A stretch of DNA of 64,000 bases from NCBI GenBank assembly GCA_030756715.1, contig JAVBJD010000002.1, positions 4,085 through 68,084 on the forward strand, written 5' to 3'. The notes beneath the pieces are model-generated. The model had not been told where the DNA came from, did no database searches, and saw only the letters and a program-made list of their open reading frames with translations. Positions 14,557 to 17,676 of this stretch are shown here, piece after piece. The stretch comes from Conexivisphaerales archaeon. GTDB taxonomy: Archaea > Thermoproteota > Nitrososphaeria > Conexivisphaerales > UBA164. The translations under genes were made by a program, and so were the position numbers. Position 1 is the first letter of the stretch. Each line of letters starts with the position of its first letter.

Positions 14557-15075
14557 TTACTCAAAACCATAAGCTATTTCTTTTAAAGCTGTTTCTTCTG
14601 GTTTTTGAAGTTTTTTAAGAAGAAAGCCTATGCCCAAGCTATCAGCAATTTCTGGGTTAAAACCACCTTTTAAAGCCTCGCCCAGTATCCTCCTGGCTGT
14701 TTCGAAGTTTCCCCTCTGGTAATGGACTACTGCTACACAAACCTTAATAATGCTGTGTATTTCTTCTTTTTCGGACCCGTTTGCTTTATGCCATATCTCC
14801 TCAAGAACTTCATGAGCTTCCCAGCACCTTCCGTTTTTTATCAGTTCTTGCAGCGTTCTTCCGCATTTTTCAAGCTCACATTCTTCGACCTTTCTTAGTT
14901 TTAAAATATCCCCTATCTTTTCTCCTAAAAAAGAATCTGAAAAATAATCAACTTCTACAAACTTACCAACCCTTACGTCGTTTGCCTGAATTTCATTAGA
15001 TCTTAACAGGGATTTAAGAGATTGAGCTTGAGCGCTTCCATACCTATCGTTTTCAAAAATGGAAAGGCACCTCAT
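14557..15075 (-). CDS. DUF309 domain protein
   Basis: WEAHEVLEEIW..VAVVHYQRGN pattern. Confidence 0.75.
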   Translation of the reverse strand: MRCLSIFENDRYGSAQAQSLKSLLRSNEIQANDVRVGKFVEVDYFSDSFLGEKIGDILKLRKVEECELEKCGRTLQELIKNGRCWEAHEVLEEIWHKANGSEKEEIHSIIKVCVAVVHYQRGNFETARRILGEALKGGFNPEIADSLGIGFLLKKLQKPEETALKEIAYGFE

Positions 15076-15158: not shown

Positions 15159-16496
15159 TCACTGTATAAATTCTTTATGAACAGCGCTTATTGCTTTTTT
15201 ACAGTCTTCGCTGTTGATTACAAAACCTATGTTTAGTTCGCTTGACCCCTGAGTTATCATTATTATGTTAATCTTTTCTCTAGCGACAGCTCCAAAAAGC
15301 CTGCTGGCGACCCCGGGCGTACCTTTCATACCTTCGCCAATTATTGAAACTGCGCACACGTTGTCGATAATTCTGTAATCCTGTATTTTTTCACCCATGA
15401 ACTGAATTTCAATAAGGTTTCTATACTTGTTTACGTCTTTCCTGTCAATTATTATGTTCACTTCTGAACCTGATGCGTTCTGTGTCACCGTGTAAAATTT
15501 AAGGTTTGAAAGCAAAAAACTGTTAAGAAGGTTTGGCAACAGGGACCTTAACCCTGTCCCGATTATAGTGAATATAGCCAGACCATCCAGATTTGCAACC
15601 GCTTTAACTACATTAGTTGAAATCACCCCTTCGCCCCTTATTTCTGTGCCGTTCTCTATCGGCTGCTTTATGTCGTTAATGTAAAGCCTTACGCCTTTTG
15701 ATTTAAGAAGTTCCATCGCTTTTGGATTAAAAATGTTAGGGTTAAACGAAAGGATTTCCAAAGCCTCATTGTAAGAAAGAATATCTATTTTATTGGCGTT
15801 ACTTATTATACCAGGGTCTGCGCTCATTAACCCTTGAGCGTTTGTCCACAGGTCAAGCTTCTGGCTCTCAGCAGATATAGCAAGTAAAGTTGCCACAAGG
15901 TCTGAGCCCCCTTCAGGAAGCCTGACTACTTTTTTATCAGAAGTTAAGGCCGTCAGACCTCCCACAAGGTTTATGCTTTGAGTATCAATGCTTTTGATAA
16001 AGCTCTTTCCTCTTTGAACAGAAGAGTTTATCATAACTTCATATCCTGATATCTGGTCCACTATGAGCCCTGCTTCATACCCGTGGAATACGTTTATCGC
16101 TTTGCCTATTTTGGATGATAAAAATTTCTTGATAGTAGAAAGAGTCATATCCTCAACCGAAAGATAAATCTGCCCTTCCAAGGCCGGGTATATTTCCTTT
16201 ATTTTTGAAATCAATTCAAAGATTTCAATTGATCCATTAAAAGATTCAAGAACCTTTTTTTCGTCATGAAAACCATTAACTCTGAACTTTTCATATACGT
16301 TCTTAAAAGCTAATGCGGCTTCTGCTTTGCCGCTCAATGCCAATTCGATGGCTTTCCTTATGTCGTTTTTTACGTTAGAAGGCACTGAAACAATAAAAAC
16401 CCCAGTAGCGTTGTACCTTTTTTCGATGAGCTTTTCTATGTCTTCATAATTAGATACATCAACTGCGCTACCACTAATCTTTGCTATTTCTTGCAC
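15159..16496 (-). CDS. Aspartokinase-like protein with two ACT domains and a divergent kinase domain
   Basis: GGSD, WT..G.MSADP, C-terminal VSIIGEGMKGTPGVASRLF..ITQGSSELNI; GTG start at 16496 preferred over ORF-track 16616. Confidence 0.8.
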   Translation of the reverse strand: MQEIAKISGSAVDVSNYEDIEKLIEKRYNATGVFIVSVPSNVKNDIRKAIELALSGKAEAALAFKNVYEKFRVNGFHDEKKVLESFNGSIEIFELISKIKEIYPALEGQIYLSVEDMTLSTIKKFLSSKIGKAINVFHGYEAGLIVDQISGYEVMINSSVQRGKSFIKSIDTQSINLVGGLTALTSDKKVVRLPEGGSDLVATLLAISAESQKLDLWTNAQGLMSADPGIISNANKIDILSYNEALEILSFNPNIFNPKAMELLKSKGVRLYINDIKQPIENGTEIRGEGVISTNVVKAVANLDGLAIFTIIGTGLRSLLPNLLNSFLLSNLKFYTVTQNASGSEVNIIIDRKDVNKYRNLIEIQFMGEKIQDYRIIDNVCAVSIIGEGMKGTPGVASRLFGAVAREKINIIMITQGSSELNIGFVINSEDCKKAISAVHKEFIQ

Positions 16497-16609: not shown

Positions 16610-16625
16610 TTAACACCCCTGTTAA
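16610..16625. promoter_or_regulatory. Inverted repeat, candidate operator
   Basis: TTAACA-CCCC-TGTTAA about 30 bp upstream of the TATA-like tttata (16655-16660) of the wHTH gene pair. Confidence 0.3.
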
Positions 16626-16693: not shown

Positions 16694-17176
16694 ATGTCAG
16701 TGAATTATTCTAAGGTTCGTTTGAAAATAGGTGTAAATGAGATAGAAATTTATGGAGTAAAGGAAGACATGGAATACCTCAGTCAGTTAGCTTTAAAGAT
16801 CTACGAAGGTATTTCTAAAAATGTACCTCAATCACAAGGTAAAGTGACGATCATAGAGAAGGAGGAAGAGCAGTCAAAGCAAGCTGAAAACATAATCCAG
16901 CTTCCTGATATACAGCCCGATCCAAATTCTTCTCTGCCAGCAAACATATTGAAGCTCTTTGTAAGCGAATGGGGCAAGAAGCCCAGGAGGCTTTCAGAAG
17001 TAAAGGAAGTGCTGGACAGCTTTGGGCTTGTATATCCCAAACAGACGGTGGCTGTTTCTCTTTTGAGGCTAGCTAAAGAGGGTAAAATACGCAGGTTTAA
17101 GAACGAGCGCGGTGAATACGTATATATTTCAGTTCCTTCAAAGATACTGCAAGAGGAGCAAGGTGAAACGGCATGA
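16694..17176 (+). CDS. Hypothetical protein, probable C-terminal winged helix-turn-helix
   Basis: PRRLSEVKEVLD..TVAVSLLRLAKEGKIRRFK..YVY wHTH pattern. Confidence 0.6.
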   Translation: MSVNYSKVRLKIGVNEIEIYGVKEDMEYLSQLALKIYEGISKNVPQSQGKVTIIEKEEEQSKQAENIIQLPDIQPDPNSSLPANILKLFVSEWGKKPRRLSEVKEVLDSFGLVYPKQTVAVSLLRLAKEGKIRRFKNERGEYVYISVPSKILQEEQGETA

Positions 17177-17676
17177 GTTCAAACGCATTAAAGGTTGACA
17201 TAAGCTATGGAGAAGTTTCAGCTACTTTCAGCGGCAACCCTGATGAAGTACTCATAGCTGTTACTAAATTCCTATCATCTAACCTGCCGGCAATAGAAAT
17301 AGCGAAAAAAGTTATTCTCAATTATGATTTGCAGGACCTTATTCAGATGTTTTCAGATTATGTAAAGATCACTGAAGAGGGTCCCAGAGTTCTCGCAAGG
17401 GAAAACCTTAGCATCAAACAAAAGATAACATTACAGCTTGTCGGGAACAGGATAGCTTATTTGCTTAACAAGATCCCGCAAGAACCTGTAACGATTCAGG
17501 ATCTCATAAACGTGCTTGGGCTCCCAGGTAAATCCATAAGCAGCAGGCTGAGCGAGCTTGTTAAAGCCGGTCATGTAACCAGGATTCAGGATGCAAAAAC
17601 TACCAAGTATCAGATCTCGACCATGGGGATCAAGTGGTTATCAGATACCTTAACAGGAAAAATTAAAGCCGATTAA
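17173..17676 (+). CDS. Hypothetical protein, probable C-terminal ArsR/MarR-like wHTH
   Basis: TIQDLINVLGLPGKSISSRLSELVKAGHV..YQISTMG; ATGA overlap with the previous gene. Confidence 0.62.
   Translation: MSSNALKVDISYGEVSATFSGNPDEVLIAVTKFLSSNLPAIEIAKKVILNYDLQDLIQMFSDYVKITEEGPRVLARENLSIKQKITLQLVGNRIAYLLNKIPQEPVTIQDLINVLGLPGKSISSRLSELVKAGHVTRIQDAKTTKYQISTMGIKWLSDTLTGKIKAD

Follow-up and report, generated by a model that had tools for sequence, protein, structure and literature searches.

A class-I aspartokinase paralogue of a Conexivisphaerales archaeon with an eroded kinase domain and a conserved second ACT domain: a candidate pseudo-aspartokinase

The effector sites of class-I aspartokinases (AKs) lie between two ACT1 domains, and pairs of ACT2 domains stabilise the dimer (PMC4142519). 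The described enzyme closest to the gene considered here, which occupies positions 15159-16496 on the minus strand of a 64,000-nucleotide stretch of a Conexivisphaerales contig (JAVBJD010000002.1; the whole stretch is referred to as the window), is the Thr-sensitive class-I AK of M. jannaschii (MjAK; PDB 2HMF, 3C1M, 3C1N), together with its orthologues in Nitrososphaeria and Bathyarchaeia. The MjAK-type enzyme and the window protein have in common an amino-acid-kinase (AAK) N-lobe with a helical insertion, a C-lobe, ACT1, and an ACT2 of near-identical motif content; the MjAK type is the evolutionary parent of the window gene and its positional orthologue. In contrast to that parent, to which it is 24-31% identical, the window protein has no aspartate-binding Arg, no Asp in the TD motif, no GAK..H, no Thr in SA..G.TD, no GG in KFGG and no ACT1 effector loop; it reaches none of the curated AK cut-offs, and its gene is not linked to asd.

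By analogy, the nearest functional precedent would be the ACT-only β subunit of the α2β2 class-II AKs (C. glutamicum, T. thermophilus, P. aeruginosa; 2DTJ, 2DT9, 5YEI_D), an AK-derived, non-catalytic, ACT-bearing polypeptide that serves in effector binding and regulation and that the window ACT2 matches at 1e-8 to 1e-11. These β subunits have no kinase domain and are made from the same lysC gene, whereas the window protein is the full-length product of a separate gene with a constrained but eroded kinase domain. The Pyrococcus-type pair of divergent archaeal AK-like proteins (TIGR02078 and PRK08373) is of uncertain activity and has no ACT domains; membership in it was rejected, the match being faint, at 35.6 and 31.1 bits where 242 and 237 are required. 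With pseudoenzymes in general (PMC10211241, PMC5106787) the window protein shares motif loss, purifying selection and an active paralogue alongside, but it retains part of the catalytic core (Lys, Asp). Because Lys6, Glu115 and Asp199 persist, its inactivity is presumed. Full-text searches of the PMC open-access and bioRxiv subset returned no described pseudoenzyme of the aspartokinase/amino-acid-kinase family, and a literature search returned no publication on an AK in Conexivisphaerales.

The interpretation that we favour, at a probability of roughly 55%, is that the window protein is a non-catalytic, AK-derived ligand-sensing or regulatory protein (a pseudo-aspartokinase) that acts on some partner. 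The coding sequence, its domains and its principal motif replacements are set out below; the eroded clade comprises the window protein and its counterparts in three genera, g1, g2 and g3, and dN/dS is the ratio of nonsynonymous to synonymous substitution rates, calculated pairwise (NG86).

15159..16496, minus strand: coding sequence of the eroded class-I AK paralogue, 445 amino acids, GTG start, stop included; the start is that of homologues.
16017..16496, minus strand: kinase N-lobe (residues 1-160), which formerly bound Asp; no other part is as eroded or evolves as fast (identity with canonical enzymes 13-18%, dN/dS 0.07-0.32).
16464..16481, minus strand: K6-I-S-G-S-A, replacing KFGGTS; catalytic Lys kept.
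15627..16016, minus strand: kinase C-lobe (residues 161-290), the former nucleotide-binding lobe, the sole part matched by Pfam AA_kinase.
15900..15923, minus strand: R192-L-P-E-G-G-S-D, replacing TLGRGGSD; the Arg that binds the Asp α-carboxylate (EcAKIII R198) is Glu195, and the organiser/catalytic Asp199 (EcAKIII D202) is kept.
15831..15848, minus strand: W217-T-N-A-Q-G, replacing WTDVDG; the first Asp is N or G throughout the eroded clade.
15723..15746, minus strand: F251-N-P-N-I-F-N-P (251-258), replacing FGAKxxHP; no member of the eroded clade retains the Gly, Ala, Lys or His.
15381..15626, minus strand: ACT1 (residues 291-372); fold predicted to be retained, glycine-rich effector loop 3 residues shorter (G313-T-G-L / RSLLP), PG lost.
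15162..15380, minus strand: ACT2 (residues 373-445), near-canonical (GEGMKGTPGVA, QGSSELN), 62-84% identical across the eroded clade; S424G, G432C and A384S clade-fixed.

The extent of the erosion was gauged in an alignment (A2) with 50 canonical homologues as the reference, the eroded proteins being scored at columns that are at least 90% conserved in that set. The window protein keeps 11 of 32 such columns in the N-lobe, 24 of 44 in the C-lobe, 5 of 16 in ACT1 and 26 of 34 in ACT2; judged from the alignment, its motif erosion is far from chance. The replacements that the preliminary description had read from the single sequence (KFGGTS by KISGSA, VVSAM by I35-VSVP, TLGRGGSD by RLPEGGSD, WTDVDG by WTNAQG) are all present in the multiple alignment. 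The alteration that it had seen in the S.GE.LS segment is also real, SFGERL reading LSVEDM (residues 112-117), but the Glu of GE is retained as the invariant Glu115 and the preceding Gly alone is lost, as the ungapped multiple alignment, anchored by SYAESF of g2, makes clear. Residue roles (EcAKIII mutagenesis, MjAK nucleotide contacts) are taken from the CaAK structure paper (PMC4142519). In the KFGG loop, Ser replaces the first Gly throughout the eroded clade and the second Gly in half of its members; the window protein has Lys43 where canonical enzymes have the Thr43 of SA..G.TD, and Gly229 where MjAK has Arg241 (DPR reads DPG). The nucleotide and phosphate motifs thus read KISG, TNAQG, DPG and FNPNIFNP, with only Asp227-Pro228 kept; of the aspartate-binding pair, Glu115 (EcAKIII E119) is kept and the Arg (R198) is lost; the catalytic residues Lys6 (EcAKIII K8) and Asp199 (D202) do not vary, either within the eroded clade or among canonical sequences. 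The ACT1 loop, GxGMxGxPG in canonical enzymes, reads GTGL in the window protein, and a 3-residue deletion comes after it.

The former active-site positions vary within the clade: position 195 is E, D, K or R, position 219 N or G, position 221 Q, K, E or D, position 254 N, S, T or E, and position 43 K, R, I or V. This variability implies that constraint at these positions has been relaxed rather than re-specified, and it weakens one of the two proposals of the preliminary description, namely a kinase for another substrate, since the altered positions have not been fixed to a new state (the Arg position already differs as E/D/K/R among close relatives). The changes that are fixed in all clade members are G8S, S11A and G252N, along with those in ACT2.

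A contrary explanation, which we consider unlikely though by no means negligible, is that kinase activity persists in the window protein, which would be a weak AK isozyme, an AK isozyme under unusual regulation, or an AAK-fold enzyme with an altered substrate; in the last case the Arg-to-Glu change at the α-carboxylate site would re-specify binding and ACT2 would regulate. What recommends it is largely also what weighs against our interpretation. Lys6, Glu115, Asp199, Ser37 and Asp227-Pro228 (the latter including a nucleotide contact, D239, in MjAK) are invariant over ~3.4 substitutions per site, which is unexpected of a functionless cleft; Lys6, Glu115 and Asp199 (the first and last catalytic, Glu115 binding the amino group) belong to the four residues whose role is backed by mutagenesis. 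At position 195, Arg or Lys is still found in genus g2, and all members of g1 have a basic residue at position 192, which could be a carboxylate binder that has migrated. The clade-fixed G8S, S11A and G252N changes point the same way, and two active AKs commonly coexist in this order. The kinase N-lobe is still under purifying selection, as is the C-lobe. UMP kinases tolerate the replacement of Gly by Ser in their KxGG loop. Nor is the C-lobe GAK Lys, taken alone, a safe marker of inactivity, because the LysC-type AK of g1-g3 has lost its equivalent (the GSK lysine) too; it was rejected as a marker of a dead enzyme on that ground, the LysC type having kept the His and the eroded clade having lost both. 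Finally, gene context in the window and in the relatives' loci yielded no operon-level or pathway link. This last observation counts against the persisting kinase as well. Against it stand, in addition, the unfixed substrate-site positions (195 and 43), the loss or variability of the Lys and His of GAK..H, of the TD Asp and of the MjAK R241 equivalent, the loss in g3 of even WT..G and ADP, and scores below the cut-off of every AK hidden Markov model (HMM). The invariance of Lys6, Glu115 and Asp199 on very long branches, together with the basic residue at position 192 in g1, leaves room for ligand binding or for residual or altered catalysis.

The distribution of selective constraint along the gene separates its two ends. 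Over the whole gene dN/dS is 0.07-0.17, and by part it is 0.07-0.32 for the N-lobe, 0.03-0.22 for the C-lobe, 0.015-0.07 for ACT1 and 0.008-0.08 for ACT2. Relative to canonical enzymes, the window protein is 13-18% identical in the N-lobe, 28-34% in the C-lobe, 17-26% in ACT1 and 47-63% in ACT2; canonical enzymes compared with one another are 30-59% identical in the N-lobe, 47-67% in the C-lobe and 42-71% in ACT2. Thus, the pattern of constraint is inverted relative to active AKs, ACT2 being far more conserved than the kinase lobes. The open reading frame (ORF) is intact, without stops or frameshifts, in 13/13 genomes of g1-g3. The loss of conserved residues and the purifying selection that define a pseudoenzyme operationally are found together here. 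The same numbers bear on the notion that the gene has no function left and is decaying towards a pseudogene after the LysC-type enzyme took over: fast evolution from the canonical node and the loss of many canonical residues are what decay would produce, but the frames are unbroken, ACT2 is 62-84% identical across genera and the predicted fold is confident. With such dN/dS values, and with the gene retained, decay is as good as refuted, and we regard it as highly improbable.

What remains of the protein is, as predicted by modelling, a complete class-I AK architecture, the AAK catalytic domain and two ACTs. The AF2 model built on alignment A2 (mean pLDDT 91.2, pTM 0.88) folds both ACTs (β-α-β-β-α-β); Foldseek places the MjAK chains 3c1m, 2hmf and 3c1n at the top (TM 0.85-0.87), followed by CaAK, AtAK and EcAKIII, with TM to EcAKIII and AtAK of 0.81-0.88. 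By sequence, too, the closest solved relative is MjAK (2hmf/3c1m, E 1e-47). Family models are less forgiving: Pfam matches only the C-terminal half of AA_kinase (residues 166-273, 54 bits), the aspartate kinase model TIGR00657 (EC 2.7.2.4, COG0527) scores 184.7 bits against a cut-off of 208.7, and the window protein falls far below the cut-off of all 20+ NCBIfam AK equivalog models. ACT2, with its glycine-rich loop GEGMKGTPGVA, reaches 94.2 bits with Pfam ACT_9 (PF22468; cut-off 27); neither ACT_9 nor ACT (PF01842) detects ACT1, the loop of which is shortened and the fold of which is predicted. That the last ACT domain is near-canonical, as the preliminary description had it, thus holds for ACT2, but the effector loop of ACT1 is eroded. 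A Thr or Lys sensor does not follow directly from the conserved ACT, because the class-I effector sites lie at ACT1. Clade members bear conflicting annotations, "aspartate kinase" (JGI, some NCBI) and "ACT domain-containing protein" (NCBI PGAP, P0006), because their HMM scores lie below cut-off.

The host genome, a 1.26-Mb metagenome-assembled genome (MAG) of 138 contigs and 91% completeness from an archaeon of the class Nitrososphaeria that is not one of the ammonia-oxidising archaea (AOA), has another AK. It is of the LysC type (~390 amino acids, contig C22, L001:1351-2514), lies 4 bp upstream of asd, scores 219 bits with TIGR00657 (over the cut-off) and reads KMGGS, SALKGETN, SMGERVS, TLGRGGSD and KDVG; thrC-hom and two DHDPS homologues are also present. 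The preliminary description had proposed looking for a canonical lysC elsewhere in the genome and had been prepared to abandon its reading if the window gene were the sole aspartokinase of a prototroph; because a LysC-type AK over the cut-off is found on C22, next to asd, that circumstance does not apply, and the window AK is neither the only AK of the genome nor the one linked to the pathway. Its other proposal, a dead sensor or regulatory subunit, becomes the best-supported one, with this second, canonical-looking AK, the variable active-site positions and the strongest selection on the ACTs in its favour, although, with Lys6, Glu115 and Asp199 invariant, ligand binding or residual chemistry in the old active site may persist. 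The LysC type is found in all genomes of the family to which g1-g3 belong (f1) except two incomplete ones (66% and 73% complete), and in genomes that carry the eroded gene and are complete enough, a LysC-type AK adjoining asd is always present. The two genes have evolved at different rates: identity to genome G000 is 79-91% for the LysC type against 46-80% for the window gene within g1, and 64-66% against 32-39% in g2 and g3. Contig C54 carries, near hom, one more gene of the AAK family, the third. It was considered as a Pyrococcus-type AK and rejected; it is a carbamate kinase (TIGR00746, 431 bits; L010:1489-2451) some 2.5 kb from the thrC-hom pair, and it adjoins adenosylhomocysteinase and TFE-α.

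The LysC-type AK of exactly g1-g3 reads GGSGLIHYKA (loci L030-L039, L060-L065) where g4 and the families f4, f3 and f2 read G[SA]K(L/F)..., the C-lobe Lys being replaced by Gly; its remaining AK motifs are kept, the nearby His included, and it is strongly constrained, with a dN/dS of 0.04-0.10. The coincidence of this GSK-to-GSG change with the eroded lineage is intriguing for a heteromer, though it is a single event on one branch. A heteromer is what a specific version of our interpretation holds: the window protein would be a dedicated regulatory subunit of the co-resident LysC-type AK, like the ACT-only β of α2β2 AKs, and would supply the effector-binding ACT interface that the LysC-type enzyme lacks. 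Besides the altered nucleotide motif, the constant co-occurrence of the two paralogues in g1-g3, the poorly recognisable first ACT of the LysC type and the class-II precedent, in which α and β ACT domains pair (PMC4142519), speak for such a subunit. We nevertheless judge this version improbable: the two genes are on different contigs and are not co-localised, the co-occurrence and the correlated change each fall on a single branch and so have no statistical weight, and the ACT arrangements of class I and class II differ.

The pseudo-aspartokinase interpretation also draws on the restriction of the eroded form to one lineage. Among 121 genomes of class Nitrososphaeria it is confined to the family f1, which apparently belongs to the order Conexivisphaerales, and there to g1 (8/8), g2 (4/4) and g3 (1/1); public relatives are labelled as Nitrososphaeria and Conexivisphaerales MAGs. 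The canonical enzyme (KFGGTS / SFGER / GRGGSD / W[ST]DVDG / FGAK..HP) is found in g4, the fourth genus of f1, and in all the other Nitrososphaeria sampled (families f3, f4, f5, f7 (AOA), f8 and f12). In the tree, a branch of ~1.0 substitutions per site, supported at 100/100, sets {g1, g2, g3} apart from every canonical sequence, and the path from the canonical node to the window protein amounts to ~3.4 substitutions per site; on the evidence of the tree the eroded form has a single origin and has evolved fast. About 10 clusters at 90% identity belong to the eroded clade in a search of 5.8 billion proteins, and a profile search of 1.84 billion representatives retrieved the full eroded pattern in two 50%-identity clusters only, those of g1 and g2; the clade is therefore narrow. 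A flanking block (PEP carboxylase-like, THUMP methyltransferase, AAA_17, CBS protein, two small ORFs, HflX, HTH protein, CCA-adding enzyme) is common to g1, g2 and g3 and is found in part in g4. The synteny shared by g1-g3, in part by g4, and by public relatives speaks for the window gene being the orthologue of the canonical gene.

The sister genera preserve graded natural intermediates: g4, with an intact kinase and an eroded ACT1 loop; g2, which still has the Arg; g1; and g3, the most eroded. In g4 (L041/L042, genomes G083/G091) the kinase motifs are canonical and the ACT1 loop has a 2-residue deletion and has lost PG (GPLVGG--NIATKIL), so that the gene has the look of an intermediate; degeneration has gone furthest in g3, with KVGSD and PDDGWAD and without WT..G and ADP. 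Since the ACT1 loop is already eroded in g4, the erosion of ACT1 seems to be earlier than that of the kinase, an order which suggests that feedback regulation was lost before catalysis. Three further class-I AK representatives that look unrelated (P0132, P0139, P0141) have independently become eroded in part (TLGPGGAD / WSGVDG / SFGDRF, ACT1 being eroded as well; TLGVGGSD / WARVDG / SGVK). Going by these motifs, degenerate AK paralogues may have arisen more than once.

A scheme can be put forward in which the ancestral gene encoded a Thr-sensitive, M. jannaschii-type class-I AK of the kind used by other Nitrososphaeria, and in which, in the common ancestor of g1-g3, AK duty would have been carried by the co-resident LysC-type AK of a lysC-asd operon. 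The MjAK-type copy would then have lost canonical aspartate and ATP binding and been kept for a non-catalytic, ACT-centred role. Its product, which keeps the whole AK fold as modelled, is probably an ACT-mediated homodimer as in class-I AKs; selection now acts mainly on the ACT domains, ACT2 above all. As the likeliest mode of action, a small ligand, plausibly an aspartate-family amino acid, would bind at the intact glycine-rich loop of ACT2, in the remnant cleft with Lys6, Glu115 and Asp199, or at both, and the resulting conformational change would be passed on to a partner protein in place of catalysis; the LysC-type AK of the same genome is a candidate partner. ACT2 itself may have been conserved for dimerisation, for contact with a partner or for a new ligand.

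Some details of the gene and its surroundings follow. On the minus strand the coding sequence starts with the GTG at window position 16496 and ends at 15159. The plus-strand reading of 15159-16496 has stops throughout and was rejected, as was a longer ORF (16616-15159), since homologues begin, with ATG, at the position equivalent to GTG 16496. The start of homologues, together with a TATA-like box centred ~24 nt upstream, fixes the product at 445 amino acids; the box is placed as follows:

16525-16514, minus strand: TATA-like box TTTATATTAAAA, centre ~24 nt upstream of the GTG; read from the sequence, with putative promoter function.

The placement of TTTATATTAAAA is consistent with a leaderless transcript and the short start. 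The intergenic stretch from which the AK-like gene and two small winged-helix-turn-helix (wHTH)-like ORFs diverge contains a perfect palindrome, TTAACACCCCTGTTAA (16610-16625), which is in none of the relatives' loci compared and is not significant (34/100 shuffles yield at least one match at no more than 1 mismatch), and it was dropped as evidence on both counts.

The neighbours in the window are genes for a DUF309 protein, a CCA-adding enzyme, the two small wHTH-like ORFs, HflX, an HTH protein and a CBS protein. They are syntenic in relatives, yet their orientation and adjacency shift between genera: in g2 the neighbour block has the opposite orientation, and both g2 and genome G038 have an inserted radical SAM gene. 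The DUF309 gene (172 amino acids, 14557-15075) lies 83 bp downstream of the AK-like gene on the same strand and may be co-transcribed with it; the arrangement is repeated in another g1 genome (L017), and in g2 DUF309 is nearby on the opposite strand. The small ORFs (window 16694-17676; also L015/L016 3750-4762) overlap, encode 160 and 167 amino acids, the second weakly MarR-like, are conserved at 57-60% identity in g3 and occur in g2 too; there the block orf160-MarR-HflX-HTH runs the other way round than in g1, and its adjacency to the AK-like gene is consequently not conserved.

The scope of these findings is narrow, a few uncultivated hot-spring genera, and for these the function proposed here is one that we infer. 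A more ambitious proposal, which we put forward tentatively and at somewhat less than even odds, is that this would be the first AK-derived pseudoenzyme, a full-length AK turned into a stand-alone metabolite sensor or regulator that works through ACT2, the Lys-Glu-Asp cleft, or both, to control another protein such as the LysC-type AK. The proteins of this clade are called "aspartate kinase" by some pipelines; when the metabolism of non-AOA Nitrososphaeria is reconstructed, they should be left out of the count of AK isozymes. If the interpretation is correct, the window gene would provide a clean natural example of a feedback-regulated metabolic enzyme becoming a pure regulatory protein after a paralogue has taken over catalysis, with the stepwise intermediates preserved in sister genera, and the concept of the pseudoenzyme would come to include the amino-acid-kinase/aspartokinase family.

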